Of a DNA stretch of 64,000 nt, positions 8,390 through 48,155 are shown one piece after another. The stretch is from Candidatus Latescibacterota bacterium. Its GTDB lineage: Bacteria; Latescibacterota; UBA2968; UBA8231. Position numbers and translations under genes: made by a program. The DNA is taken from NCBI GenBank assembly GCA_965221775.1, contig CBDCSU010000004.1, forward strand, positions 640,001-704,000, in the 5' to 3' direction. Position 1 is the stretch's first letter, and each line of letters opens with the position of its first letter. Below the pieces are notes generated by a model, which saw only the letters and a program-made list of their open reading frames with translations, made no database searches and had not been told where the DNA came from.

Positions 8390-9046
8390 ATGCCAGTCAT
8401 CGCCGACATCGGAACGCGGATCGAGCTGGTGCCCATGGACGGGCACTTCCACGACATCACGGTGGCCCTGTACCGCCAGTCCACGGCGGCGGGCCCCGCC
8501 TTTCTGGTGCACAGCTACAGCGCTCTCGACGGAGCCGAGGAGCGCCTCGAGGAGATCGGCTCCCTCATGACGATCCTGGGCGGCCTGCAGCCGTCGTTGG
8601 AGGCTCCCGGCCTGCTGGCCTTTCCCTGCGGAGAGGAGCACGGCCTGGCCGTGCGCCGTCTCTTCCTCGAGGCGTGCAAGATCGGCTCCCTCGACGATGC
8701 GGCCCCTCTTCCCCTGTCCACGGTGGACCGCAAGTCGGGCCTGACCATCGTCGTCGAGCCCCTGGGAGAGGGCCAGTACCGGGTGGAGGCGTTGGGAGAG
8801 GCCGACGAGTCCGACCGCTCCCGCCGCGTCCGGGTGATCGTCAACGGCCTCATGAAGCTGGGTGAGATGCGGCCCGTGGAAGGCGCCGGCGACTGCGTCG
8901 GCTTCGACTGCCGCCACTCCCACGACGAGCTCGTGGGGCTGCTCCTGGTGCGCGCGCCGAACGTGCGCGCCATCGTCCGCGAACAGCAGGCTCTGGCCGC
9001 CCGCGGCGTGCTGGCGGCGCCGAGCCAGCAGGGGAACGAGTCATGA
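8390..9046 (+). CDS. Hypothetical protein with two internal LG-x13-F-x-C-x3-H repeats
   Basis: ATG at 8390, ATGA overlap with the next gene, native codon usage. Confidence 0.75.
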   Translation: MPVIADIGTRIELVPMDGHFHDITVALYRQSTAAGPAFLVHSYSALDGAEERLEEIGSLMTILGGLQPSLEAPGLLAFPCGEEHGLAVRRLFLEACKIGSLDDAAPLPLSTVDRKSGLTIVVEPLGEGQYRVEALGEADESDRSRRVRVIVNGLMKLGEMRPVEGAGDCVGFDCRHSHDELVGLLLVRAPNVRAIVREQQALAARGVLAAPSQQGNES

Positions 9047-10068
9047 TCTCCATGAACGGCAGGCAACGGGTCCTCGCCGCCCTGCAGCGGCAGCCGGTGG
9101 ACCGTACGCCGGTCTGCAATCCCACCTCGGTGGCCACGGTGGAGCTGATGGACCTGGTGGACGCCCCCTTCCCCGCCGCCAACCGCGAGCCCGAGCTGAT
9201 GGCCCGGCTGGCGGCCACGGGGTACACCGAGCTCGGCTTCGACAGCATCATGCCCGTGTTCTCCATCATCCAGGAGTCCTCCGCCCTGGGCTGCAAGATC
9301 CAGTGGGAGCAGAAGGACAACTGGCCCACGGTGAAGATGCGCGAGCCGATCTGGACCTCCGTCGACGACATCGAGATCACTCCCGGCCTGCTCACCCACC
9401 CGGACACGAAGTGCGTCCTCGACGCCCTCACCATCCTCTGCCGGGAGTACGGCGACGAGGCCGCCATCATCGGCAAGACCATGGGGCCCTGGTCCCTCGC
9501 CTACCACTGCCTCGGCGTCGAGCCCTTCCTGCTCATGTCCCTCGACGACCCTGACGAGACGAAGAAGATCCTCGACATCCTCAAGGAGGTCACCGTCGAT
9601 TTCGGCATCGCCCAGGTCGAGGCCGGCGCCGACGCCCTGACCCTCCCCGACCACGCCACCGGCGACCTGGTGAGCGGCTCCTACTACGAGCGCTACCTGC
9701 GCGACCTGCACATCGAGTTCGCCGAGCGCATCCCCTGCCCCATCATCCTGCACATCTGCGGCCGCACCGTGGACCGCATGGAGTTCATCGCCCAGACCGG
9801 CATGGCCGCCTTCCACTACGACTCCAAGAACAAGCCCGGGGAGTCGAGGGAGATCGTCGGCGAGCGCATCAGCCTCGTGGGCAACATCAACAACCCCGAG
9901 ACGCTGTTCTCCAAGGAGCCGGAGGATGTGGCCGCCGAGGTGGTGAAGAACCTGGAGGCGGGCGTGCAACTCGTCGGACCGGAGTGCGCCATCCCTCTGC
10001 AGACCTCCATCGAGAACCTGCGCGCCATCCCGTCAGCGGTGCAGGAATGGCATGCGCTGAACAACTGA
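9043..10068 (+). CDS. MtaA/CmuA family methyltransferase (uroporphyrinogen decarboxylase fold)
   Basis: GRQRVLAAL..QPVDR.PV start, Zn ligands LHICG and GPEC, GNI motif. Confidence 0.9.
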   Translation: MISMNGRQRVLAALQRQPVDRTPVCNPTSVATVELMDLVDAPFPAANREPELMARLAATGYTELGFDSIMPVFSIIQESSALGCKIQWEQKDNWPTVKMREPIWTSVDDIEITPGLLTHPDTKCVLDALTILCREYGDEAAIIGKTMGPWSLAYHCLGVEPFLLMSLDDPDETKKILDILKEVTVDFGIAQVEAGADALTLPDHATGDLVSGSYYERYLRDLHIEFAERIPCPIILHICGRTVDRMEFIAQTGMAAFHYDSKNKPGESREIVGERISLVGNINNPETLFSKEPEDVAAEVVKNLEAGVQLVGPECAIPLQTSIENLRAIPSAVQEWHALNN

Positions 10069-10154
10069 CGATGCCTGGATCCCGCGACAGCCAACAGTGC
10101 AGATGGCGCGCCATCCCCGAGGCCGTGCGCCAGTGGCACGGGCAGGCGAACTGA
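10021..10154 (+). repeat. Diverged direct repeat of the methyltransferase 3' end (10021-10068 vs 10107-10154)
   Basis: 33/48 nt identical, no indels; RAIPSAVQEWHALNN* vs RAIPEAVRQWHGQAN*. Confidence 0.9.
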
Positions 10155-10904
10155 GTGCCCGAGCTCTCGGACATCCACAACGAGACCCTCCGCTTCGAGA
10201 TCGAGGAGTACCTCGAGAGGCCGGAGGAGATCGAGCGCTTCGTGGGGATCTTCTCCGCGGCGCGGCCGATCAACCAGGACATGGCGGCGGCCCTGATCGA
10301 GGGCGACCATCACACCGTCGACGCCCTCGCCGCCCAGGCCCTGGAGGAGGGCCTCGAGGCGCTGGAGGTGATGGACGACGGACTGATCGCCGGCATGGGC
10401 ATCGTGGGGGTCAAGTTCCGGGAGAACTTCATCTTCGTGCCCGAGGTCCTCGCCTGCGCGCGCGCCATGAAAGCGGGCATGGCCCACATCGAGCCGATCC
10501 TGTCGGCCTCGGGCGCCGAGAAGGCGGGCACGGTGGTGATGGGGACGGTGAAGGGCGACCTCCACGACATCGGCAAGAACCTGTGCATCATGATGCTCAA
10601 CGGCGCCGGCTTCGACGTCATCGACCTCGGCGTCGACACCTCGGAGGACGAGTTCATCGACGCGGTGGAGGAGTCGGGGGCGCGGGTCATGGGGATGTCG
10701 GCCCTGCTGACGACGACCATGCCCAACATGGGCAAGACGATCGAGGCCTTCATCGACGCCGACCTGCGCGACGACGTGCAGATCATGGTGGGCGGGGCGC
10801 CCGTGACCCAGGAGTTCGCCGAGGACATGGGCGCCGACGGCTACGGCAAGGACGCCCTGGCCTGCGTGGAGCTGGCCAAGCAGCTGGCTCGGAACGGAAG
10901 CTGA
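10155..10904 (+). CDS. Corrinoid (cobalamin-binding) methyltransferase protein
   Basis: Cap domain GM..VG.KF....FVPEVL; DLHDIGKN, MSALLTTT, MVGGAP motifs. Confidence 0.95.
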   Translation: MPELSDIHNETLRFEIEEYLERPEEIERFVGIFSAARPINQDMAAALIEGDHHTVDALAAQALEEGLEALEVMDDGLIAGMGIVGVKFRENFIFVPEVLACARAMKAGMAHIEPILSASGAEKAGTVVMGTVKGDLHDIGKNLCIMMLNGAGFDVIDLGVDTSEDEFIDAVEESGARVMGMSALLTTTMPNMGKTIEAFIDADLRDDVQIMVGGAPVTQEFAEDMGADGYGKDALACVELAKQLARNGS

Positions 10905-11239
10905 TGGCGGGGATCCGGCCCGAAGAGGTGAAGAAGCGCTTCGACCGCCTCACCGAGATCTTCGGCGGCATCGTCGAGCACGCCGACCTCCAGGCTTCGC
11001 TGCGGTGCCCGTACCGCGACCGGCACGACCTGTGCACGGCCAAGTTCCACTGCAAGAACCAGACCCCCGCCGGGGACGCCGCCGACGGCGACCTGTCGTG
11101 CTCCCACGACGGCCGCTTCGACTACCGCAGCGCCTGGGAATCCGACCCGCGCACCGGCGAGCGCGCCCGCCGCCGCATCGAGACCATCCGCGAGCGCGCC
11201 GCCGAAGACCGCCAGGGGCGCCGCGGCCCCCGGCGCTGA
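10904..11239 (+). CDS. Small Cys-rich hypothetical protein
   Basis: TGATG overlap; RCPY-x5-CTAKFHC-x15-C. Confidence 0.7.
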   Translation: MAGIRPEEVKKRFDRLTEIFGGIVEHADLQASLRCPYRDRHDLCTAKFHCKNQTPAGDAADGDLSCSHDGRFDYRSAWESDPRTGERARRRIETIRERAAEDRQGRRGPRR

Positions 11240-11256
11240 CGGCCGGCCCCCCGGCC

Positions 11257-12915
11257 ATGGCCGTCGTCCGCGCCCCCGGCCTCGAGCCTCGGAGGCTGAC
11301 CCCGGGGCGCACCCTCTTCGACTACGCCGACGACCTGCGGCTGCGGGTCCCCACCTCGTGCCTGCGCAACGGCTACTGCCACGAGTGCGTGGTCGAGGTC
11401 CACTCGGGCATGGAGGCCCTGCGCCCCCGCTCGGAGGCGGAACGGTTCCTGCGCGACCCCTACCGCCTCGCCTGTCAGGCCCTCGTCGTCGAGGATCTCG
11501 ACGTCGACTTCGAGCCCCTCCGGCGGTCGCCGCAGATCCTCTCCGGCACCCGCCCCCGCCGCATCGAGCTTGACCCCGTGGTCGGCCGCCGCGGCGACGA
11601 GGTCCTCTACGACGGCGAGCCCGTCGACCGCTACCGGGGGCACCTCTACGGCCTGGCCATCGATCTCGGGACGACGACGGTCGCCATGGACCTCGTCGAC
11701 CTGGAGACGGGCGACTCGGTCTGCGTCACCTCCTTCGAGAACCCCCAGCGCTTCGGCGGCTCCGACGTGATGCACCGCATCACCTACGACGGCGGCCCCC
11801 ACCACGGCGAGCTGCAGAAGGCGGTGGCCACCGCCCTCAACCACCACATCGCCGGCATGTGCGACCGCCTCGGCTTCGTCCGCCAGGAGATCTACGAGAT
11901 CACCCTCGCCGGCAACCCGACCATGCGCGACCTGCTCTTCCGGCTGGACGTGCAGCCCATCGGCACCCGCCCCTACAAGTCGACGGTGGAGCGCGCCTTC
12001 CTCGACGGCGAACGGTCGACCACCGCCTGGGTGGAGAAGTCGCGGCGCCTGGGCATCCGCGCCAACATCCACACCCGCGTCTACGGCCTGCCGCTGATCG
12101 CCAGCCACGTGGGCGCCGACACCGCCGCCGCTCTCGTAGCCTGCGACCTGCTGAGCGCCGAGGGCGACGGGGTGAGCCTCCTCGTCGACGTGGGCACCAA
12201 CACCGAGGTGGTCATCGCCGGACGGGGGCGGATGGTGGCCGCCTCCTCGCCGGCGGGGCCGGCCTTCGAAGGCGGCCTCGTGGGCTGCGGCATGCCCGGC
12301 TACGAGGGCGCCATCGAGTCGGTGCGCATCGACGACCACGGGGCCTTCGTCTGCTCCACCATCGGCGGCGCCGAGCCCCTGGGCCTCTGCGGCTCCGGCC
12401 TGGTGGACCTGCTCGCCGAGCTGCGGCGCACCAACCGCATGTCGGAGAAGGGCGTCCTCGGAGACGGCCGGCAGCGCAACCCGCGGGTGATGGTGGCGCC
12501 GGAGCAGGGCCTCGCCTTCTCCGCCGAGGACGCCAGCCACCTGGCCCAGGCGAAAGCGGCCAACTACTGCGGCCAGTATCTTCTGCTGCGCGAGTTCGGC
12601 ATCGATCCGGCCGACGTGTCGCGGCTCTACCTGGCCGGGGGCTTCGCCAACTACGTCGACGCCGCCAATGCGGTGGCCATCGGCTTCCTGGCGCCGGTGC
12701 CGGCGGAGCGCGTCGTCAAGGTCGGCAACGCCGCCCTCCAGGGCGCCCGCGAGGTGCTGCTCAGCCGCGGCCGGCGCCAGCGGCTGGAGGCGGCGGTGGC
12801 CGGCATCGAGCATGTGGAGCTGGAGACGGTGCCCGAGTTCTTCGACGCCTTCGTCGACGGCTGCATGTTCCGGCCCATGCCCTCCCGCGTCCTCAACCGA
12901 CAGGATCCCCGTTGA
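11257..12915 (+). CDS. RACo/RamA-type ASKHA ATPase, reductive activator of corrinoid proteins, with N-terminal 2Fe-2S domain
   Basis: CLRNGYCHEC...RLAC; DLGTTT, NPQ.FG.DV, DVGTNTE, AGPAFEG, GLCGSG, LAGGF, GNAAL.GA. Confidence 0.92.
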   Translation: MAVVRAPGLEPRRLTPGRTLFDYADDLRLRVPTSCLRNGYCHECVVEVHSGMEALRPRSEAERFLRDPYRLACQALVVEDLDVDFEPLRRSPQILSGTRPRRIELDPVVGRRGDEVLYDGEPVDRYRGHLYGLAIDLGTTTVAMDLVDLETGDSVCVTSFENPQRFGGSDVMHRITYDGGPHHGELQKAVATALNHHIAGMCDRLGFVRQEIYEITLAGNPTMRDLLFRLDVQPIGTRPYKSTVERAFLDGERSTTAWVEKSRRLGIRANIHTRVYGLPLIASHVGADTAAALVACDLLSAEGDGVSLLVDVGTNTEVVIAGRGRMVAASSPAGPAFEGGLVGCGMPGYEGAIESVRIDDHGAFVCSTIGGAEPLGLCGSGLVDLLAELRRTNRMSEKGVLGDGRQRNPRVMVAPEQGLAFSAEDASHLAQAKAANYCGQYLLLREFGIDPADVSRLYLAGGFANYVDAANAVAIGFLAPVPAERVVKVGNAALQGAREVLLSRGRRQRLEAAVAGIEHVELETVPEFFDAFVDGCMFRPMPSRVLNRQDPR

Positions 12916-13922
12916 AGAGCTTCCGCCAACGACTGGACGACCCGGAGCCCGTCCTCTTCGACGGCGGCTTCGGCACCCAGCTCTTCGCCCGCGGGGTGGA
13001 GCTGCCCAACAGCGCCCTGGCCAACGCCCACCACCCCGAGGCCGTCGTCGACGTCCACCGGGCCTACATCGCCGCCGGCTCGGAGATGATCGAGACGAAC
13101 ACCTTCGTCGCCTCAGCCCTGCACCTGGAGATGGCCGATGCCGGCGACCTCACCGCCGGCGAGCTGGCCAGGCTCGCAGCCGCCCACGCCCGGCGGGCGG
13201 TGGAGGAGAGCGGAGACCCGGTCTACGTGGCCGGCTGCCTGGGGCCCTCTCCCGGGGCGATCGAGGCCGACGCCGGAGACACCGACTTCGGCATCGCCGA
13301 CGACAAGGTCCGCGCCGCCCACCAGGAGGTGGCCGAGGGCCTGGCTTCCGCCGGCGTCGACCTGTTCCTGGTGGAGACCATGTTCTCGGCCCGCGAGGCG
13401 GCCATCGCCGTCGACGTGGCCCGGGGCTTCGGTCTGCCCTTGGCCGTCTGTCTGACCTACAAGTACACCCGGGACCGGCGGACGAAGCAGGTCGTCTACC
13501 GCACCGACTGGGGCCATTCCCCCGCCGACGCCGTCGAGATCCTCGGCTCCGGGGAGCACTCCGGCGGTGACGACCTGCTGCCCTCGATCGACCTCTTCGG
13601 CCTCAACTGCGGCGCCGAGTCCCGGCGCGAGGAGCACTCCGGCATGGCCTACGCCATCGAGGGCACGAGACAGACCGCCGCGGCCCTCGCCGCGCGCGGC
13701 CTGAACGGCCTCCGCCTGGCCGCCTACCCGAACGCGGGTCTGCCGAAGCTGGACCGCGAGACCCGCCAGACCTACTACCTGCAGGGTCCGGATGTGATGA
13801 TCGCGAGCCTCGACGCGCTGCAACAGGCGGGCGCCTGGCTCATCGGCGGCTGCTGCGGCACCACCCCCGACCACATCCGCGCCTTCCGCGACGGCCTCGA
13901 CGCCGGCGCCGACGATGGCTGA
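12912..13922 (+). CDS. Homocysteine S-methyltransferase domain protein (stand-alone MetH N-terminal module)
   Basis: DGGFGTQL, ETNTF, ETM, GLNC, YPNAGLP, IGGCCGTTPDHI; TTG start overlapping the upstream TGA. Confidence 0.9.
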   Translation: MKSFRQRLDDPEPVLFDGGFGTQLFARGVELPNSALANAHHPEAVVDVHRAYIAAGSEMIETNTFVASALHLEMADAGDLTAGELARLAAAHARRAVEESGDPVYVAGCLGPSPGAIEADAGDTDFGIADDKVRAAHQEVAEGLASAGVDLFLVETMFSAREAAIAVDVARGFGLPLAVCLTYKYTRDRRTKQVVYRTDWGHSPADAVEILGSGEHSGGDDLLPSIDLFGLNCGAESRREEHSGMAYAIEGTRQTAAALAARGLNGLRLAAYPNAGLPKLDRETRQTYYLQGPDVMIASLDALQQAGAWLIGGCCGTTPDHIRAFRDGLDAGADDG

Positions 13923-14184
13923 GTACCAGGTCCTCTACTGGCGGGACATCCCCGCCCAGGTCCGCGTCTTCGGCGGCCGGCGGCCCCTCTCCCGGCCCCT
14001 GCCCGACCGCTTCCAGCAGGCGATCGACCGCGTCGCCATGCGCGACGGTCTCGCCGGCACCGACGACTACCTGGCCCAGTGGCAGTGGACCGAGAAGCGC
14101 ACCGGCGACGGCGAGCCGGAGGAGTTGCTCGGCCGCCTCATCGAGGAGCTGGCAGCCGAGTACGACGCCGCCAACCCCGGCTGA
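13915..14184 (+). CDS. Virulence_fact (PF13769)-like small protein
   Basis: YWRDIPAQV...L..RFQQAIDR.AM..G...DDYL..W signature. Confidence 0.8.
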   Translation: MAEYQVLYWRDIPAQVRVFGGRRPLSRPLPDRFQQAIDRVAMRDGLAGTDDYLAQWQWTEKRTGDGEPEELLGRLIEELAAEYDAANPG

Positions 14185-14187
14185 GCC

Positions 14188-16134
14188 GTGGCCTCCACCT
14201 ACCCCAAGAGCTACGAGACGATCGTCGTCGGCGGCGGCCACGCCGGCACCGAGGCGGCCCTGGCGGCGGCGCGCATGGGCGCCGAGACGCTGCTGGTGAC
14301 GATGAACCTCGACACCATCGGCCAGATGTCGTGCAACCCCGCCATCGGCGGCATCGGCAAGGGCCACATGGTCAAGGAGATCGACGCCCTCGGCGGCCAG
14401 ATGGGCGTCAACACCGACCTCGCCGGCATCCAGTTCCGGCGCCTCAACACGCGCCGGGGCCCGGCGGTGCGCGCCACCCGCGCCCAGTGCGACAAGAAGG
14501 CCTACCAGCTCGAGCTGAAATACGCCTGCGAGGCCCAGCCCCGCCTCGACGTACGCCAGGGCATGATGGAGAGCCTGCGGGTGGAGGACGGCGCCATGCG
14601 CGGCATCGGCGTCAAGGGGGGGATCGTCTACTCCGGGCGCACCGTCATCCTGACGACGGGGACCTTCCTGCGCGGCAAGATCCACGTGGGCGACTTCCGG
14701 TACGCCGCCGGCCGCGCCGGCGAGGGCTCGGCCGACCGCGCCGCCGAGGGGCTCGCGGGTCTGGGGTTCCGGATCGGCCGCCTGAAGACGGGCACGCCGC
14801 CGCGCGTCAACGGCAGGACCATCGACTTCTCCGCCCTGGAGCCGCAGCCGGGGGACGAGCCGCCGCCCACCTTCTCCTGCCGCACCGAGGGCCCCGTCCT
14901 GCGCCAGATCCCCTGCTGGATCACGTACACCCACGCCGGGACCCACCAGCTGATCCGCGACAATCTCGAGCGCTCGGCGATGTACTCGGGCCGCATCGAG
15001 GGGGTCGGTCCGCGTTACTGCCCTTCCATCGAGGACAAGGTGGTGCGCTTCGCCGACCGCGACCGGCACCAGATCTTCGTCGAGCCCGAGGGCCTGCGCA
15101 CTCACGAGCACTACATCAACGGCCTCTCCATGAGCCTGCCCGAGGAGGTGCAGCTGCCCGTCCTGCGCTCCCTGCCCGGCCTCGAGCGGGCCGAGATGAT
15201 GCGCCCCGCCTACGCCGTCGAGTACGACTACGCGGAGCCCACCCAGCTCTACCCCACCCTGGAGACCAAGCGGGTGCGGGGGCTGTTCTTCGCCGGGCAG
15301 ATCAACGGCACCACCGGCTACGAGGAGGCCGGCGCCCAGGGGCTGATGGCGGGGATCAACGCCGTCCTCAAGTCCCGCGGCGAGGACGGCTTCGTCCTCG
15401 ACCGTTCCCAGGCGTACATCGGCGTGCTCATCGACGACCTGGTGACCAAGGGGACGACGGAGCCCTACCGCATCTTCACGTCGCGGGCGGAGTACCGCCT
15501 GCTGCTGCGCGAGGACAACGCCGACGAACGCCTCACGGAGCACGGCCGCCGCTTCGGCATCGTCGACGACGAGAGCTGGCGGAAGTACGAGATCAAGCGC
15601 GACAGCATCGCCGCCGAGATGGAGCGCCTGGAGTCGCAGCGCCTGCCCCTGGGGGAGGGCCTCGACGAGCTGCTGCGGCAGCGGCAGACGGCGCCGGTGC
15701 GCCAGCCTCCCCTGCTGCGCGACCTGCTGCGGCGGCCGGAGCTGCGCTATGCCGACATCGCCGCCCTGGCGCCCCCCCGGCGGCCGCTGACGCCGGAGGC
15801 GGGGGAGTGCGTGGAGGCGCGGGTCAAGTACGCGGGCTACGTCGACCGTCAGGCCGAGGAGGTGGAGCGGCTGCGGCGCATGGAGACGCTGCGCATCCCG
15901 GAGGACTTCGACTACGACGAGGAGGCGCGCCAGCTCTCCTCGGAGGCGCGCCAGAAGCTCGGGCGCGTGCGGCCCCGCTCCCTGGGGCAGGCGTCGCGCA
16001 TCTCGGGCGTCTCCCCCGCCGACGTGTCGTCGCTGATGGTGCTCCTCAAGGCGCGGCGGGGGCGGCGGGCGGCGGCGGCTCCGGCCTCTTCACCTTCCGA
16101 ACCCGCGAGTCCTCGGTCAGCAGCCAGCGGTTGA
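14188..16134 (+). CDS. mnmG: tRNA uridine 5-carboxymethylaminomethyl modification enzyme
   Basis: [48 protein letters not shown]. Confidence 0.98.
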
Positions 16135-17200
16135 TGGCGCCGTCGCCGTGCAGGTCGGCGGCCTCCTCGACCCAGGCCTCGTACCCGTGCTCCGCCGCCG
16201 CGATCCCCGGCGGCCAGTGGAAGCCGTCCATCGTCCGGGGCGCGAGTCCGAGGCTCTCGGGCACGGCGGCATAGGCCAGCCCCTTGCGGGCGCGGACCCG
16301 CTGCCGCCAGTAGATCTCCCGCAGCAGGCGGATCGCCGCGTCCTCGGGCGGCAGCTCGAAGTCGCCGCCGGCGGCCCCGGGGCCGACCACCTCGTGGGCG
16401 AAACGCACGTAGCCCCACTGCTCCGGGAAGTGCATGTTGATCAGGCCCTGGGGCGACCACACCCAGTTGTCCTCGCGCTCGCCGGGGACCTTCACGTAGC
16501 CCTGCCCGTCCTCGGCGGCCACGACCCGCCACTGCACGCGGGAGAAGTTGATCCGCCAGATGTGGCCGTCCTCGGGGGGCACGGCGGTGCGGCTGGGACG
16601 GCGCAGCCCCTCCCAGGGGAAGGCGATCTCCACCGACCAGCCCTCGTCCTCGTCGCCGGGGTCGTTGATCGTGCCGTAGACCCGGACCCCCGTGCGCAGG
16701 CCGGGAATGTCCCAGGCGTGGACCGGGGGCCCGCCGTCGCGGTAGGGCCGCACCAGCAGCAGGTCCCACTCGGTGCCGAAGGCGTTGACCTCGTACTCGT
16801 AGTAGTTGTGGGTGTCCCAGTCGGGGTCGACGAAGACCTCGAAGTCGTTGTCGTGGAAGATGACGGCGTCGCGCTGGGTGAGGGTGGCCCAGACATGGGG
16901 CTCCTCGAGGAAGGCGGCGACGTAGAAGTGCTCGTCGTCCCACAGCATCCTGGCCCGGGTCTGCAGCCGCGGCGCCGCCTTGAGGTCGCCCTCGATGTCG
17001 ACGAAGAGCTGCGTCCAGGGGGCGTGCTGCCAGGAGGGCTCGTCGAGGGAGCCGTCGACGACGACCGCCCCGGAGGCGCGGAAGGCGGTATAGCGCCGCG
17101 GCTCGATACCCGCCAGGTGCTCCGGGTCCCACGGCGCCCCGAGGGCCGCCGCAGCCACGGCCGGAGCGATCAGCAGAGCGCGAAAACCACCGATGGCCAC
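16046..17200 (-). CDS. Secreted carbohydrate-binding family 9-like protein
   Basis: Signal peptide; [42 protein letters not shown]. Confidence 0.85.
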
Positions 17201-17245
17201 CTCGTCTATCTCCAGTCTGCGCCGTCACTTGGCCCCGATCTTCAC

Positions 17246-17275
17246 TTGCGGGGAACGGGCGCCGCCCCCTATACT
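17246..17275 (+). promoter_or_regulatory. Putative sigma70 promoter of the adk operon
   Basis: TTGCGG-N18-TATACT in the divergent intergenic region. Confidence 0.45.
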
Positions 17276-17342
17276 ACGCGTTTTCGCCTACCCCCCTCAA
17301 CGAAGGCGCCCACGCGTCTCACGCCACCCCAGGGCAGACCGC

Positions 17343-17990
17343 GTGCAGTTGATCCTCCTCGGGGCCCCCGGCTCCGGCAAGGGCACCCAGGCCCGCCGGC
17401 TGGAGCAAGCCTACGGGGTCGTCCACATCTCCACCGGCGACATGCTGCGCGACGCCGTGGCCGAGGGCACCGAGCTCGGCGGCCTGATCGAGGACCGCCT
17501 GCGGCGCGGCCACCTGGTCCCCGATGCCCACGTCCTGGCGCTGGTGGCGGCACGTCTCGGCCGGGGCGACCTGCACCGCGGCTTCGCCATCGACGGCTAT
17601 CCCCGCACGCGGCGGCAGGTGGACGACTTCGAGAAGCTGATGCAGGGCCTCGGACTCGGCACCGACGCCGCTCTGAACATCGCCGTGCCCGACGAGATCG
17701 TCGTCGAGCGCCTCTCCAGCCGCCGCATCGACCCCGAGACCGGCCGCGTCTACAACCTCGCCCTCGAGGCCCAGCCGCCGCCCGAGATCGCCGGCCGCCT
17801 GGCCCGCCGCAACGACGACCGCCCCGAGATCATCCGCCAGCGCCTCGCCACCTACCACGCCGAGACCCGGCCCGTCATCGAGCACTACCGGCGCACCGGG
17901 CAGCTCATCGAGGTCGAAGGCGCCCGCCCCCCCTCCGAGGTCTTCGGCGACATCCGCCAGGGGCTGGAGGCGGCCGTGCAGAGCCGCTGA
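17343..17990 (+). CDS. adk: Adenylate kinase
   Basis: LLGAPGSGKGTQ, HISTGDMLR, DGYPRT, RNDD; GTG start chosen. Confidence 0.95.
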   Translation: MQLILLGAPGSGKGTQARRLEQAYGVVHISTGDMLRDAVAEGTELGGLIEDRLRRGHLVPDAHVLALVAARLGRGDLHRGFAIDGYPRTRRQVDDFEKLMQGLGLGTDAALNIAVPDEIVVERLSSRRIDPETGRVYNLALEAQPPPEIAGRLARRNDDRPEIIRQRLATYHAETRPVIEHYRRTGQLIEVEGARPPSEVFGDIRQGLEAAVQSR

Positions 17991-17992
17991 TC

Positions 17993-18325
17993 TTGTCCGG
18001 CACCGACCGCATCTCCCTCTACAAGAGCGGCCTGGCCAAGTACGCCGGCCAGGACTTCGCCGGCGCCCGGGCCGACTTCGAGCAGGCCCTCCGGCTCGAC
18101 CCGGAGTTCGCCGACGTCCACCACTCCCTGGCCCACGTCCTCGAGAAGCTGGGAGACCTGGACGGCGCCCTGGCCAGCGCCCTGCGGGCGGTGGAGCTGT
18201 CCCCGGACGAGGTTCTGGCCCACACGTCGCTCTCCATCATCTACATGCGCAAGGGCATGATCCCGGAAGCCGAAGCCGAGAAGGCCCTGGCCGACGAGCT
18301 GCAGCGCCGCCAGGACGGGGCCTGA
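17993..18325 (+). CDS. Small TPR-repeat protein
   Basis: Helical repeats A...FEQALRLDP, A.....RAVELSP; probable TTG start. Confidence 0.75.
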   Translation: MSGTDRISLYKSGLAKYAGQDFAGARADFEQALRLDPEFADVHHSLAHVLEKLGDLDGALASALRAVELSPDEVLAHTSLSIIYMRKGMIPEAEAEKALADELQRRQDGA

Positions 18326-18347
18326 GCCTCCTCCTCCCCGCGCTGCC

Positions 18348-19454
18348 ATGGCCACGGCCGCCGGCCCGAAGGCCCCCGCCCCAGCCGCCGCACCCGAGCC
18401 AGAGCCCGCCTTCCACATCGGCCCCTACCCCCTGCGCCCCCTGCGTCCGGGCATGCCGGTGCTGGCCCTGGCGCCGCTGGCCGGCGTCGGCAACTGGGTC
18501 TTTCGGCTGATCTGCGCCCGTCTCGGGGCGCGCCTGGTGGGCGTGGAGTTCATCAACTGCCGCATCGTGCACCAGTCCGGCATCCGCGTGCAGCGCCTCC
18601 TCGACTTCTCCGACGCCGACGTGTACCGGCGCACGGGGATCAGCCTGCTGGCGGCGCAGATCTACGGCAACGACATCGGCCTCATGGCCGACGGCGCCCG
18701 CCAGCTGGAGCGGCGCGGCGCCCAGGTGGTGGACATCAACTTCGGCTGCTCGGTGCCGCAGATCGTGCGCAAGGGCAGCTGCGCCGCCTTCCTGCGCGAC
18801 CTGCCCCGGTTCTACGAGGCGGTGGCGGCCACGGTGGAGGCGGTGAGCGTGCCGGTCATGGTCAAGACCCGCATCGGCTGGGACGACGACACCATCAACG
18901 TCGTCGAGATCGTCCGCCAGGCCCAGGCCGCCGGGGCCCGGGCGATCGCCATCCACGCCCGCACGGTGATGCAGAAGTACGACGGCCAGGCCCGCTGGGA
19001 GTGGCTGGGGCGCGCATGCGAGGAGGCCGAGGTGCCCGTTTTCGGCAACGGCGACGTGCGCAGCTACGAGGACGCCCTGGCCATGGTCGAGCGCACCGGC
19101 TGCGACGCGGTCATGATCGGCCGGGCGGCGATGGCCAACCCGTGGATCTTCTCGGCCCGGCGCGGCGCCAACCTGGCGGAGCGGATCGAGCTGGCCGCCG
19201 ACCAGGTGCGCTGGATGGCGCAGTACAAGGGCGAGCACGTGGGCGTCAAGGAGACGAGAAAGCACCTCGCCCTCTACTTCCGCGACCTGCACCGGGACTC
19301 CCCCGAGCGCCTGCGCCTGCTGACCACCGAGTCCCTCGGCGAGCTGCTGGACTTCCTGGAGAGCTGGAGCCAGGCCCTCGACGGGGACCCGGAGCGGGAC
19401 CTCGCCCTCAGCGCCTCCGAGGCGAACCGCCTGGCCTGGAGCGGCACCGGATGA
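18348..19454 (+). CDS. dusB: tRNA-dihydrouridine synthase
   Basis: LAPLAG, DINFGC, VKTRIGW, HAR, GNGDV, VMIGRAA..NPW. Confidence 0.9.
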   Translation: MATAAGPKAPAPAAAPEPEPAFHIGPYPLRPLRPGMPVLALAPLAGVGNWVFRLICARLGARLVGVEFINCRIVHQSGIRVQRLLDFSDADVYRRTGISLLAAQIYGNDIGLMADGARQLERRGAQVVDINFGCSVPQIVRKGSCAAFLRDLPRFYEAVAATVEAVSVPVMVKTRIGWDDDTINVVEIVRQAQAAGARAIAIHARTVMQKYDGQARWEWLGRACEEAEVPVFGNGDVRSYEDALAMVERTGCDAVMIGRAAMANPWIFSARRGANLAERIELAADQVRWMAQYKGEHVGVKETRKHLALYFRDLHRDSPERLRLLTTESLGELLDFLESWSQALDGDPERDLALSASEANRLAWSGTG

Positions 19455-19500
19455 GGCCGGAGGCAGCAACACCCCCACCGAACCAAGGAGAGAGCAGACC

Positions 19501-20400
19501 ATGACCGACAAGCTGGCACGCGGGATCCTGCCCGCCCTGTGCACCGCCTTCGACGACGACGGCGCCCACCCCGACGACGACCGCCAGCGGGTCCTGCTGC
19601 GCGCCCTCCTCGAGGCCGGCTCGCAGGGCTTCTTCGTATGCGGCGGCACCGGCGAGGGCCGCGCCATGTCGGTGCCGGAACGCAGGCAGGTGGCCGAGGT
19701 GGTGGCCGCCGAGGTCGCCGGCCAGGTGCCCCTGATCCTGCAGGTCGGCGCCTGTCCCACGGCGGACGCCGTCGAGCTGGCCCGCCACGCGGCCGGGGTG
19801 CCGGGCATCGACGCCGTCGCCTCGGTGGCGCCCGTGGACCGCCCGAACGACCTCGCCGCCGCCGAGGAGCACTACGCCGCCATCGGCGCCGCCACCGACC
19901 TGCCCTTCTACGTCTACTGGCTGGCCCGCGAAGCCGACCAGGCGGCCACGGCGGACCGCTTCCTGGAGGCCATGGAGCGGGTGCCCCGTTTCGCCGGGAT
20001 CAAGTTCACCGACTACAACCTCTTCCTCTTCGGCCAGCTCATCGAGCTCACCGGGGGGCGCATCAACGCCATCAGCGGCCCCGACGAGATGTGCCTGCCC
20101 GCCATGTGCATGGGCGCCGACGCGGCGATCGGCACGACCTACAACGTCATGCCGCGGATCTTCCTGGAGATGCGCCGCGCCTTCGACGCCGGCGACCTCG
20201 ACACCGCCCGCCGCTGCCAGCGCCACGCCAACCGGGTCATCCGCATCCTCATGGGAGCCGAGGTCATGGCGGCGGTGAAGGCGGTCCTCGGATGGCGGGG
20301 CACGTCCGCGGGCCCGCCCCGGGTGGTGGATCCCCTCGACGCGGAAGGAGAGGCGCGGCTGCGGCGGCAGCTGGAGGCGCTGGACTTCGAGGTGGCTTGA
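19501..20400 (+). CDS. Dihydrodipicolinate synthase/N-acetylneuraminate lyase family aldolase
   Basis: CGGTGEG, catalytic Y and GIKFT, G.DE, IGTTYN; AAGGAG SD. Confidence 0.88.
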   Translation: MTDKLARGILPALCTAFDDDGAHPDDDRQRVLLRALLEAGSQGFFVCGGTGEGRAMSVPERRQVAEVVAAEVAGQVPLILQVGACPTADAVELARHAAGVPGIDAVASVAPVDRPNDLAAAEEHYAAIGAATDLPFYVYWLAREADQAATADRFLEAMERVPRFAGIKFTDYNLFLFGQLIELTGGRINAISGPDEMCLPAMCMGADAAIGTTYNVMPRIFLEMRRAFDAGDLDTARRCQRHANRVIRILMGAEVMAAVKAVLGWRGTSAGPPRVVDPLDAEGEARLRRQLEALDFEVA

Positions 20401-20432
20401 GGGTTCTGGGGCCCGGTGCCTGAAGCCCCGGG

Positions 20433-21518
20433 CTACCGGCGGCGCTCGCGAGCCGGCCGTCTTCGCCGCGGAGGGCCGCCGTCTCCCAGCTCTCCCCGGC
20501 GCCAGGCGGCGATGTAGGCGGCGCAGTGCTCGTCCCGGCCCATCAGTACGTCATCGGCCAGCCGGTAGGGGCGCGAGCCGCGGTCGAGGGCGAAGACCTT
20601 GTCGGGGCGGCTGGTCACCGGATCGATGATGCCGCTGTCGGCGCCGGCCTCGACTGCCAGGACCATGAAGACGTCGTTGATCCACTTGCGGCTCGGGATG
20701 CCGAAGGAGACGTTGCTCATCCCCCCGGTGATGTGAATCTCGGGGCCGTACTTGTGGCGCAGAGCGGCGATCGCCTCGAAGCTGTGCCGTCCGAAGCGGC
20801 CGTCCACCGAGATCGGGAAGATCAGCGGGTCGATGTAGATGTCGCCGGCGGCGATCCCCTTCTCGAAGGCGGCGTCGACCATGCGGGAGGCATTGGCGAT
20901 GCGCTCTTCGGCGCTCTCGGGCATCCCGGACTCGCCGGCGGCGGTGACGATGACGTGGGCGTCGTGCTCGACGGCCAGATCGAGGGCATCGAGGCGTTCG
21001 AGTGAGGCCGAGTTGAGCATCGGCCGCCCCTTCGACCCGTCCCACGCCCGCAGGCCGACGGAGATCGTCTCCGCATTGGAGGAATCGACGGAGACCGGGA
21101 TGTCGGTCAGGCCCTGCACCGTCGTCACGAGCCAGGCCATGGCCTGCTTCTGCTCCTCGAGCTTCAGCGAGATCTCATCGACGTTGAGATCGAGGAAGTC
21201 GGCGCCCGCCTGTTCCTGGCGCTGAACCATCCGTCTCAGGTAATGCATGCCCTCGGCGGCGGACTCCCGGTCGCCGCCCATCGCCGCCTGCACGGCGATC
21301 TTGACGTGCTTGACGCGGCCTTCCTCGAAGTCCTGGGTGCCCTCCACCGCTTCCGGAATGACCAGCTGGCGCCCCTCGCCGTCGACCGAGCGGTAGCGCA
21401 CCGCCTGGCGGCCGTCGGCGGTGGTCGTGACGAGCTTGCCGCGGCGCATCACCACCCGCGTGGTGTGGATGTTCTCGCCGATGATGACGAAATCGAGATC
21501 GGGGTTCTTCAGCTTCAT
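20433..21518 (-). CDS. Pterin-binding methyltetrahydrofolate:corrinoid methyltransferase (AcsE/MetH pterin module)
   Basis: IIGENIHTT, GADFLDLN, SVDSS, MLNS, IDPL, GMSNVSFG.P, GADSGIIDP. Confidence 0.9.
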   Translation of the reverse strand: MKLKNPDLDFVIIGENIHTTRVVMRRGKLVTTTADGRQAVRYRSVDGEGRQLVIPEAVEGTQDFEEGRVKHVKIAVQAAMGGDRESAAEGMHYLRRMVQRQEQAGADFLDLNVDEISLKLEEQKQAMAWLVTTVQGLTDIPVSVDSSNAETISVGLRAWDGSKGRPMLNSASLERLDALDLAVEHDAHVIVTAAGESGMPESAEERIANASRMVDAAFEKGIAAGDIYIDPLIFPISVDGRFGRHSFEAIAALRHKYGPEIHITGGMSNVSFGIPSRKWINDVFMVLAVEAGADSGIIDPVTSRPDKVFALDRGSRPYRLADDVLMGRDEHCAAYIAAWRRGELGDGGPPRRRRPARERRR

Positions 21519-21665
21519 GGCAGGTGCTCTCTCCCAGCCTGTCGAATCTAAGCTGGAAACCACCTGCGCGCCTGCCGATGGCTGGCCCTGGAGGCCTGCA
21601 GCGCGTGCTGGAGCAGCAGGTGACCGGAGCCCCGAGGCGCAGGCGCCATGGGCGCCAACCTGCTG

Positions 21666-47034: not shown

Positions 47035-47291
47035 GGGAGGATCCTTCTTCCTGTCAAATGGCAGACCCTTCAGACCAGGATGGGTTTCCTGGCAAGGGCG
47101 CCGAAGATGAGTTGCAAGGCGTCGCCACGGCGCCAGCCGGAGCGTGATTCCGTGCTCGCGCACCACGCCGGCTGCCGGAGGAAGCCATCAATCGATCTGA
47201 CAAAGGGGATGTGCCAAAAGAACGGGGTTTCCCGTAGATTGTCAAAGCGATGGGCCGCCGCCGCGGTCCACCCGGAACGAGGAGAGATCCG

Positions 47292-48155
47292 ATGCCCGCC
47301 CAGCTTCTCGAAGGAGCCCCCGTCGCCGACAGGATTCTCGCCGAGGTCGCCGAGAGGGTTGCGCGCCTGAAGGAGCGGGGGCACTCCGTCGGCCTCGGCA
47401 CGATCCTGGTGGGAGAGGACGCGCCGAGCGCCGGGTACGTGCGCAAGAAACACGAGACGGCGCGGCAGGTGGGCATCGAGTCATACCACCGCGAGCTGTC
47501 CTCGACCGCGTCCCCGGACGACCTGATCTACGCGGTGCGGGAGTACAACGACGACGACGGCGTCGACGCCTACCTGATCCAGTATCCCGTGCCCCCGGGG
47601 TTCGACTATGCCGCCGCCGTGGCCGCCATGGCGCCGGAAAAGGACGGCGACGGACTGCACCCCGAGAACCTCGGCCGCCTGGTGCTGCAGGAGCCGGGGC
47701 CGGTCCCGGCGACACCGGCGGGCATCCGCGAGATGCTCCTCCACTACGGGATCCCCGTCGAGGGGCGGGAGGTGGTGATCGTCGGCCGCGGGCCCACCCT
47801 CGGCCGCCCCCTGGCCCTGCTGCTGTCGCAGAAGGCGCCGGGGGCCAACGCCGCGGTCACCGTGGTTCACACCGGCGTCCGCCACATGGCCGCCTACACC
47901 CGGCGGGCCGACGTCCTCATCGCCGCCGCGGGCGTCCCCGGCATCGTCACCCGCGGGATGGTCCGCGAGGGAGCGGCGGTGGTCAGCGGCGGCATCACCT
48001 GGAAGGGGAAGCGCCTGATCCCCGACGTGGACGAGGACGTGGGCGAGGTCGCCTCGTGGATCACCCCGCGCCTGGGCGGCGTGGGACCGACGACGGTGGC
48101 CATGCTTCTGCGCAACGCCGTGACCTGCGCCGAGCGGCGCCGGGGACTCGCCTGA
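47292..48155 (+). CDS. folD: Methylenetetrahydrofolate dehydrogenase/cyclohydrolase
   Basis: ILVGED..S..YV.KK, KD.DGLHP.N.G.L, GR...GRPL, PRLGGVGPTT. Confidence 0.93.
   Translation: MPAQLLEGAPVADRILAEVAERVARLKERGHSVGLGTILVGEDAPSAGYVRKKHETARQVGIESYHRELSSTASPDDLIYAVREYNDDDGVDAYLIQYPVPPGFDYAAAVAAMAPEKDGDGLHPENLGRLVLQEPGPVPATPAGIREMLLHYGIPVEGREVVIVGRGPTLGRPLALLLSQKAPGANAAVTVVHTGVRHMAAYTRRADVLIAAAGVPGIVTRGMVREGAAVVSGGITWKGKRLIPDVDEDVGEVASWITPRLGGVGPTTVAMLLRNAVTCAERRRGLA

Follow-up and report, generated by a model that had tools for sequence, protein, structure and literature searches.

The locus and its closest described relatives

Cobalamin relays outside methanogens and acetogens have only recently been connected with methionine synthesis and osmolyte demethylation in marine bacteria. 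In Phaeobacter inhibens, a three-gene split MetH is accompanied by a RamA-like DUF4445 protein and by DUF1638 for its reactivation and functions, as described, without any MtaA-like protein (Price 2018, PMC5764234). The Ruegeria pomeroyi proteins MtgC and MtgD are described as serving both methionine synthesis, together with MtgE, and glycine betaine demethylation, together with the MttB-family protein MtgB; MetF2 oxidises the methyl-tetrahydrofolate (methyl-THF) from betaine demethylation, and roseobacter MtgC is placed near the corrinoid domain of CmuA (Mausz 2025, PMC12478193). Here we analyse a stretch of 64,000 nucleotides, C4:640001-704000, from the six-contig, 5.36-Mb assembly of a Candidatus Latescibacterota bacterium, which is 96.8% complete. 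This whole stretch is referred to as the window. At positions 8390-14184 it carries seven plus-strand genes in one tight operon which, together with a pterin-binding methyltransferase gene located apart from it, very probably encode a cobalamin-based methyl-transfer hub made of several proteins, of the split-MetH/MtgCDE type and with a methionine synthase part.

The core of this hub is already known and corresponds to the split MetH/MtgCDE type. The new elements are an arm consisting of an MtaA-like zinc methyltransferase and the protein unk218, the small protein small111, and the location of the homocysteine methyltransferase (Hcy-MT) gene within the cluster. An earlier note on this DNA had described a three-way split cobalamin hub. 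The hub has turned out to be real and conserved, but it is not new, since such hubs are already described in PMC5764234 and PMC12478193. No description of the MtaA-like/unk218 arm or of small111 was found in the literature searched, and the available part of PMC9999580 is silent on such a system.

The window has a GC content of about 72%, so that the reading frames could be picked by third-position GC (GC3 frame plot). The GC3 frames, together with Pfam and NCBIfam scans, reproduced every gene listed earlier for 8390-14184. The junctions across the seven genes measure, in order, -4, +86, -1, +17, -4 and -8 nt. The pterin-binding module, on the opposite strand and 6.2 kb away from the operon, was confirmed in identity and location. 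Position 21518, taken previously as the boundary, is an internal ATG of the frame 20433-21563. The folD gene, expected at about 47 kb, was located there as well (Table 1).

The domain assignments of the hub proteins are well supported. The corrinoid protein matches PF02310 (4e-27, 94.9 bits), PF02607 (2.5e-21, 76.1 bits) and the PDB entry 1y80 (1.4e-58), and it carries an N-terminal extension of about 40 aa that is specific to this system. The RACo-like activase matches PF14574 (1.7e-63, 214.5 bits), PF17651 (3.6e-39) and PF00111 (3.5e-07); its matches to the NCBIfam models AcsV and RamA lie under the cut-offs of these models. Hcy-MT is recognised by PF02574 (5.4e-53, 181.1 bits) and the pterin module by PF00809 (3.2e-24, 86.3 bits), the latter scoring 209 bits against NF005719, under the cut-off of 259. 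The PF13769 protein reaches 77.9 bits (7.6e-22) against a gathering cut-off of 25 bits. A literature search on PF13769 found no paper. The family is not restricted to this system and occurs also in proteobacterial betaine-type clusters: tblastn with the window PF13769 protein led to Azoarcus pAZKH and Sinorhizobium meliloti pSymB. The clusters found there encode a corrinoid protein, DUF1638, PF13769, a methylenetetrahydrofolate reductase (MTHFR) C-terminal protein, MTHFR, a pterin methyltransferase and an ASKHA protein. Next to the S. meliloti cluster lies an MttB-family gene; the Azoarcus cluster adjoins betaine ABC-transporter genes. The shared accessory gene set implies that the core of the locus is homologous to the proteobacterial split MetH/MtgCDE hub.

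According to tblastn searches, the corrinoid protein, the MtaA-like gene, RACo and the pterin module each occur once in the 5.36-Mb genome. The only other URO-D match is a single weak one (C4:966788), and three distant Hcy-MT paralogues are present. As the genome has one corrinoid carrier, this carrier must serve the homocysteine, pterin and MtaA-like transferases; the sharing of one corrinoid by three transferases, proposed from the window, is thereby upheld for the genome. The MetH reactivation domain PF02965, DUF1638 (PF07796) and MttB (PF06253) have no match in the 96.8%-complete genome, and MtaB has none in the window or in the genome. The lack of an MttB/MtaB-type entry methyltransferase (MT1) reported for the window thus extends to the whole genome, and no alternative MT1 partner of these types was found in it. 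MttB is also absent from all five other system-bearing genomes tested. Judging from this inventory, the hub would be the only B12-type methionine synthase of the genome. Three MetE-like open reading frames (ORFs) of about 333-420 aa, which carry the Meth_synt_2 catalytic domain alone, are candidate 'core-MetE' cobalamin-independent methionine synthases. The sole MTHFR of the genome is a YitJ-like fusion of 636 aa, consisting of a homocysteine S-methyltransferase and MTHFR.

Table 1. Genes of the hub and other features mentioned in the text. Positions refer to the window unless a contig is given; the last column gives the number of surveyed unk218 loci in which the gene was found.
Feature	Position	Strand	Description	Loci (of 80)
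unk218	8390..9046	+	218 aa; unannotated family; heads operon; partner gene of the MtaA-like methyltransferase	
mtaA (MtaA/CmuA-family, URO-D fold, zinc methyltransferase)	9043..10068	+	341 aa; His237-Cys239-Cys315 site	79
corr (stand-alone corrinoid, cobalamin-binding, carrier)	10155..10904	+	249 aa; PF02310 + PF02607; DxHxxG motif	46
small111	10904..11239	+	111 aa; unannotated family; four Cys, C35, C44, C50, C66	45
raco (RACo/RamA-like ATP-dependent reductive activase)	11257..12915	+	2Fe-2S ferredoxin + middle + ASKHA domains	44
hcyMT (stand-alone homocysteine S-methyltransferase, MtgE/MetH N-terminal type)	12912..13922	+	336 aa; PF02574	22
PF13769 ('Virulence factor') small accessory protein	13915..14184	+	89 aa	27
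pterin (pterin-binding methyl-THF:corrinoid methyltransferase, MtgD/MeTr type)	20433..21563	-	PF00809	18 (within 10 kb of core; 59-67% identity)
MnmG (GidA)	14188-16134		start 3 nt past the PF13769 stop	
folD	47238-48155			
MetE-like ORF	C4:624931-625833		15 kb upstream of window	
MetE-like ORF	C6:508018-508968			
MetE-like ORF	C6:1941955-1942917			
MTHFR fusion	C4:788931-790841		sole MTHFR of the genome	
ComA homologue (phosphosulfolactate synthase)	C4:753863-754582		between GHMP kinase and aldo-keto reductase	
SelD	C5:959676-960599		outside window; one in-frame TGA	

The operon is directly followed by the gene for MnmG, a folate-dependent tRNA modifier. The adjacency of PF13769 and MnmG is confined to the closest relatives (six loci, the window included). 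An Rfam riboswitch scan of the window and four loci at gathering thresholds gave no match, and no sigma-70-like promoter was detected in the promoter scan. Four terminator-like hairpins were found versus 1.5 expected, none of them convincing.

In two metatranscriptome runs of a single study, contigs match the locus with 0-6 mismatches per 150-370 nt. They cover unk218, mtaA, corr and small111, the spacer between mtaA and corr, and the first part of raco, and one of them bridges small111 into raco. All four RNA runs compared consist of contigs, in which uncovered parts and depth carry no meaning. These matches are consistent with transcription of the operon.

The MtaA-like arm and its conservation

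The MtaA-like protein is a member of PF01208 (1.4e-63). It exceeds the cut-offs of TIGR01463, the MtaA/CmuA family model (250.4 versus 235.4 bits), and of PRK06252 (262.5 versus 244), and lies under the MtaA/MtbA equivalog cut-offs of NF040654 (235.1 versus 400 bits) and NF041608 (196 versus 600). The closest solved structure is MtaA 4ay7 (6e-52), onto whose motif the HxC and the later Cys align, and among NCBIfam models and PDB entries the top matches are methylcobalamin:coenzyme M (CoM) methyltransferases. The residues His237, Cys239 and Cys315 are 99-100% conserved in 79 sequences. Identity of the protein amounts to 76-95% across phyla and stays near 80% even at loci with about 40% GC versus 72% in the window. 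According to Kountz & Balskus (PMC10418091), the S- and Se-methyltransferases of this superfamily bind zinc through His-Cys-Cys, and the O-demethylases swap out one or both Cys. Under this rule the site argues for methyl-S or methyl-Se chemistry over methyl halides, and we lean towards S/Se chemistry of the arm on the strength of these predicted ligands. A search of the plasmid collection for a CmuA sequence to compare gave seven distant URO-D matches with 23-27% identity, none of them CmuA.

No match to unk218 was found in Pfam, NCBIfam or PDB. A word-indexed search returned 811 homologues, which are 'hypothetical' wherever a name exists, and an exhaustive HMMER profile search of 1.84 billion proteins returned 277 representatives, almost all of them unfused proteins of about 210 aa. 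The alignment of the core orthologous group shows six invariant residues, Asp17, His19, Cys80, His84, Cys174 and His178, and an invariant C-terminal segment, RAPNVR...RG.L.APS. Relatives at 25-37% identity mostly retain the Cys-x3-His and the second Cys. This residue pattern makes it plausible that unk218 is a metal-site protein. The stop of unk218 overlaps the mtaA start by 4 nt. The earlier suggestion that unk218 is a dedicated, undescribed component is supported by its unannotated family and by mtaA being its partner in 79/80 loci. In a database protein of 345 aa (P0201), an unk218-family part of 140 N-terminal residues is joined to the beginning of a URO-D domain (its first ~96 positions); the protein may be a true fusion of unk218 and MtaA or the product of a frameshifted gene prediction. 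The complex prediction from the MtaA-like and unk218 alignments gave a score of 0.01 against a mark of 0.32, which speaks neither way on binding.

The second protein of this kind, small111, matches no Pfam or NCBIfam model and has 41 homologues, each hypothetical where named. Its residues C35, C44, C50 and C66 are invariant in 45 sequences. It always sits between corr and raco (45/80 loci), and this is the slot occupied by DUF1638 in the proteobacterial clusters. With unk218 and small111 the locus contains two annotation-free protein families. The possibility that either is a divergent DUF1638 was excluded by hhalign (probability 0.1% for unk218 and 0.5% for small111), and the same holds for kinship of the two with each other or with PF13769 (0.1-0.5%).

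The gene neighbourhood was surveyed in 80 loci kept from 284 reference-genome stretches that encode unk218. The titles of these loci name Poribacteria (most), Latescibacterota, Gemmatimonadota, Acidobacteriota and Opitutales. A gene was counted as present when tblastn with the window protein gave a query cover of at least 50%. Several loci end at contig edges, and the counts in Table 1 are thus lower bounds. The mtaA gene lies downstream of unk218 on the same strand and starts within 350 nt in 74 loci and at a distance of 0.8-8 kb in five; one locus of the 80 has no mtaA within 10 kb of unk218. The order unk218-mtaA-corr-small111-raco is invariant (44/80 loci), and PF13769 always adjoins the Hcy or the pterin gene (27/80). 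The unk218-mtaA pair stands alone in 33/80 loci. In five complete Poribacteria chromosomes with such pair-only loci, corr-small111-raco-hcyMT forms a separate cluster elsewhere. Identity to the window proteins is about 55% for unk218, 60-72% for RACo and 38-93% for small111. The gene arrangement is far beyond chance, as the order recurs in 44-79 of the 80 loci and in several phyla. The earlier note had made its hub idea depend on conserved synteny, and synteny is indeed conserved.

Two further genes recur at the locus. A divergent GntR/FCD regulator is located upstream of unk218 in 29 loci from four phyla, and MTHFR fused to a PF12225 C-terminal domain is encoded downstream of raco in 24 loci, likewise from four phyla. 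The recurrent upstream genes of one Latescibacterota group encode sugar-type enzymes. In several lineages, genes for PhyH-family Fe/2-oxoglutarate dioxygenases lie near the system and form three separate clusters of 15, 7 and 5 loci (for example L012:14478-15299, L011:15502-16224 and L053:2704-3732). One Acidobacteriota contig (L064, L065) contains two unk218-mtaA-corr-small111-raco cores about 60 kb apart, with the same internal spacing and the same percent identities to the window proteins, which suggests either a recent duplication or a repeat introduced in assembly.

The phylum of the window was surveyed in 168 genomes. The unk218 gene is present in 125 of them, in families f1-f4 and, in a distant form, in f9. 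An MtaA orthologue of at least 67% identity accompanies it in 124 of these 125 genomes, the single miss being due to a contig end, and is found in none of the 43 genomes without unk218. Fourteen of these 43 have only an MtaA paralogue of 43-47% identity, and the gene contexts of three such paralogues are unrelated. Corrinoid orthologues of at least 70% identity track the system-bearing families. The corrinoid relatives of other classes have 50-56% identity and match only from residue ~41 onwards; several of them adjoin DUF1638. A fusion of DUF1638 to a hydantoinase/oxoprolinase-type ASKHA ATPase was seen in ORFs of 936-957 aa (L100:1375-3564 of genome G016, and family f10) and hints that DUF1638 partners with an ATPase.

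The relation of the system to canonical MetH differs between lineages. PF02965 is present in 68 of the 168 genomes and in 54 of the 125 system-bearing ones. In genus g13 all 31 genomes have the system and none has PF02965; in family f4 the system is present in 30/31 genomes and PF02965 in 29/31. All five Poribacteria chromosomes examined have the corr-small111-raco-hcyMT cluster together with a B12-domain match in a frame of 1229-1254 aa, and the two of these MetH-size frames that were inspected show the order Hcy-pterin-B12. In some genomes the system thus appears to be the only B12-type methionine synthase, and in others it exists beside full MetH. Its retention next to canonical MetH indicates that it is more than a MetH substitute. 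Six genomes (G043, G044, G047, G036, G038 and G039) have MetH-like frames whose reactivation domain carries one in-frame TGA or TAG codon; such frames may be pseudogenes, sequencing errors or cases of recoding.

Predicted methyl flow and competing explanations

We propose the following route. The corrinoid protein, as its domain family suggests, would hold the methyl group on cobalt. RACo would turn oxidised Co(II) back to Co(I) at the expense of ATP and in this way replace the absent S-adenosylmethionine (AdoMet) reactivation domain. The pterin module would swap methyl groups with tetrahydrofolate, and the PF02574 module would hand the methyl group to homocysteine to give methionine. The MtaA-like protein and unk218 would together form the entry methyltransferase, MT1, as a lineage-specific third arm in which a methyl-thioether or methyl-selenoether bound at the His-Cys-Cys zinc site would methylate Co(I). 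Methyl groups from methylmercaptopropionate (MMPA), dimethylsulfide (DMS), methanethiol-type or methyl-Se compounds could then reach methionine and, via methyl-THF and MTHFR, C1 metabolism. The small111 protein probably takes the place of DUF1638 in corrinoid reactivation or handling. Taken as a whole, the hub explanation with methyl-S/Se entry through the MtaA-like arm has about an even chance of being correct.

The direction of the arm, taken separately, could go either way. Entry, one of the two directions considered in the earlier note, is favoured because genomes with a canonical MetH nevertheless retain the Hcy-MT and pterin modules, which suits a relay from a donor to methionine or folate better than a second outlet that methylates a thiol, and because the MTHFR/PF13769/pterin/ASKHA set belongs to a demethylating proteobacterial system. 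It is further favoured by the GntR/FCD regulator, as such regulators are typical of inducible catabolic operons. Several points weigh against the entry route and the hub reading. The support for the individual steps in this lineage is at the sequence level. The methylation of Co(I) by a thioether is described as thermodynamically unfavourable in 10.1101/548461, so that later steps would have to draw an entry reaction forward. The neighbourhood survey of 80 loci brought up no recurrent gene for transport or for handling a thiol product, and in the window the pterin gene lies outside the operon. Of 17 divergent unk218 family members, 2 have lost the Cys/His residues. Owing to the three MetE-like ORFs, the hub need not be the sole methionine synthase. 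Finally, the RNA libraries that match the operon were compared without a silent control stretch and may contain carried-over DNA.

Among the alternatives, the reverse direction survives best, although we regard it as unlikely. The MtaA-like protein and unk218 would then act as MT2 and pass a methyl group derived from methyl-THF to a thiol or selenol other than homocysteine, such as sulfide, methanethiol, mercaptopropionate, selenide or a thiol cofactor, in biosynthesis or detoxification. This direction is thermodynamically favourable and is that of the robust MtpA assay in 10.1101/548461; ClMlp2 methylated selenide in the same way (PMC10418091). The methylcobalamin:CoM methyltransferases among the top NCBIfam and PDB matches fit such an outlet, and the clustered MTHFR could feed it with methyl-THF. 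However, a dedicated Hcy-MT kept beside canonical MetH would be redundant in an outlet-only system, and the homologous proteobacterial gene set demethylates (PMC12478193). The ComA homologue of the genome could be taken as a sign of a thiol cofactor, but it is the only element of CoM biosynthesis detected in the genome, and the two flanking genes examined, for a GHMP kinase and an aldo-keto reductase, give no sign of a CoM pathway. ComA turns up in the Bacillus and Corynebacterium controls as well, and the homologue may belong to sulfolactate or sulfonate metabolism instead.

Selenium scavenging is somewhat less likely still. According to this explanation, the MtaA-like protein and unk218 would demethylate dimethylselenide or methylselenol to provide selenide for SelD, a role that has been proposed for the sdm/mlp clusters; the hub would serve as the methyl sink, and the task of unk218 could be to handle selenide. 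Of the 125 genomes with unk218, 122 have SelD, in most cases with a TGA in frame, versus 9 of the 43 without it, but this association is largely a class-level split among related genomes, so that the counts overstate it and are not independent evidence. The family f1 genera that have no system (g2, g3 and g17) also have no SelD, and SelD is present in all five Poribacteria and both Acidobacteriota genomes tested. The SelD of the genome analysed here probably is a selenocysteine-containing selenophosphate synthetase, given its in-frame TGA. Type 1 mlp clusters co-occur in 87% with selenocysteine machinery, and Mlp2 methylates selenide (PMC10418091). On the other hand, the system is intact without SelD in a complete Opitutales chromosome (G173) and in the 98%-complete genome G096, and it would be odd for a pair devoted to trace-element salvage to head a B12 methionine synthase operon.

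It is improbable that methyl halides are the substrates. In this scenario, named first in the earlier note, the MtaA-like protein would act on CH3Cl, CH3Br or CH3I in the manner of the CmuA N-terminal domain, with the pterin module in the role of CmuB. The layout of MtaA-like, corrinoid and pterin proteins parallels CmuA/CmuB, and the MtaA-like protein passes the TIGR01463 'MtaA/CmuA family' cut-off. The placement of roseobacter MtgC near the CmuA corrinoid domain would also be in line with it (PMC12478193). However, the MtaA-like protein is not fused to the corrinoid domain, the two genes being separated by an 86-nt gap, and the invariant His-Cys-Cys is the S/Se hallmark (PMC10418091); moreover, the anaerobic chloromethane enzyme CdmB is related to O-demethylases (PMC13222342). 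Least probable is a plain split MetH in which the MtaA-like protein and unk218 are auxiliaries for cofactor loading or priming and no third arm exists: the lack of MetH in the genome, the distribution in genus g13 and the single operon of the window agree with it, but the Phaeobacter version needs no MtaA-like protein (PMC5764234), the catalytic zinc ligands are invariant, the pair is separate from the other genes in 33/80 loci, and many genomes with a canonical MetH have kept both the pair and the remaining genes of the system.

If the methyl-S or methyl-Se entry route is correct, it would constitute an unrecognised route in marine sulfur or selenium cycling, would imply a higher B12 demand of symbionts and would assign functions to two orphan families. 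Going further, and with little confidence, one may speculate that unk218 and the MtaA-like protein form an unrecognised bacterial methyl-thioether demethylase that directs methyl groups derived from dimethylsulfoniopropionate (DMSP) into methionine and folate by way of the shared corrinoid protein, with unk218 as a new metalloprotein subunit and small111 as a new corrinoid-reactivation factor. Such a demethylase would operate in Poribacteria, in Latescibacterota and in further phyla from the sea and from sponges. An aerobic marine isolate has been seen to demethylate MMPA to mercaptopropionate, and a literature search on MMPA, mercaptopropionate and DMSP found no paper on an aerobic MMPA demethylase. 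If the demethylase proposal is true, a gene for the cobalamin-type conversion of MMPA into mercaptopropionate outside methanogens would be at hand. Independently of the substrate, the predicted hub would account for methionine synthesis without MetH, which is relevant to the metabolic reconstruction of uncultured lineages.

Comparison with known systems

The Methanosarcina systems MtsA/MtsB, MtsD/F/H and MtpA/MtpC resemble the locus in combining an MtaA-family zinc enzyme with a small corrinoid protein. In these archaea the MtaA-family enzymes MtsA, MtsD/F/H and MtpA act as MT1 on methylsulfides, and the systems draw methyl groups from thioethers (DMS, MMPA) and need a RamA-type activase (10.1101/548461). 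Their acceptor is CoM or methanopterin, as opposed to the predicted acceptors homocysteine and THF in the bacteria considered here, and no unk218-like partner is described for them. The likeness is one of family.

The type 1 mlp clusters, which are assigned to methyl-sulfur or methyl-selenium metabolism and are confined to anaerobes, and the sdm genes of M. voltae share with the locus an MtaA-like protein with His-Cys-Cys, a corrinoid protein, an activase (RACE in their case) and the strong co-occurrence with genes of selenium utilisation (PMC10418091). As described there, mlp clusters have two or three Mlp paralogues and no THF methyltransferase and are found in obligate anaerobes only. Unlike them, the locus has a single MtaA-like gene, in place of the Mlp2 and Mlp3 paralogues that characterise type 1, together with pterin and Hcy methyltransferases, unk218, small111 and PF13769.

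CmuA is an MtaA-like domain fused to a corrinoid domain in one polypeptide. With CmuA/CmuB the locus shares the three-part bacterial relay of an MtaA-like protein, a corrinoid protein and a pterin-type THF methyltransferase. Unlike in CmuA, the first two are encoded by separate ORFs with a stop codon and a gap between them, and the locus adds Hcy-MT, RACo, unk218 and small111 to the CmuA/CmuB set.

The greatest similarity is to the split MetH and MtgBCDE systems. The locus has in common with both of them separate PF02574, PF00809 and B12-binding proteins and a DUF4445/RACo activase instead of PF02965. As in MtgBCDE, one corrinoid carrier would serve methionine synthesis and a third methyltransferase, and MTHFR is associated with the system. 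The third transferase, unlike the MttB-family MtgB, is an MtaA/CmuA-family zinc enzyme with unk218; DUF1638 is absent and its slot is taken by the four-Cys small111, and the corrinoid protein has an N-terminal extension of its own. The hosts differ from Phaeobacter and Ruegeria as well, being genomes labelled Latescibacterota, Poribacteria, Acidobacteriota and Opitutales. Compared with MtgBCDE, the locus appears to present the same hub rebuilt around a different putative entry enzyme, in phyla with many sponge-associated genomes.

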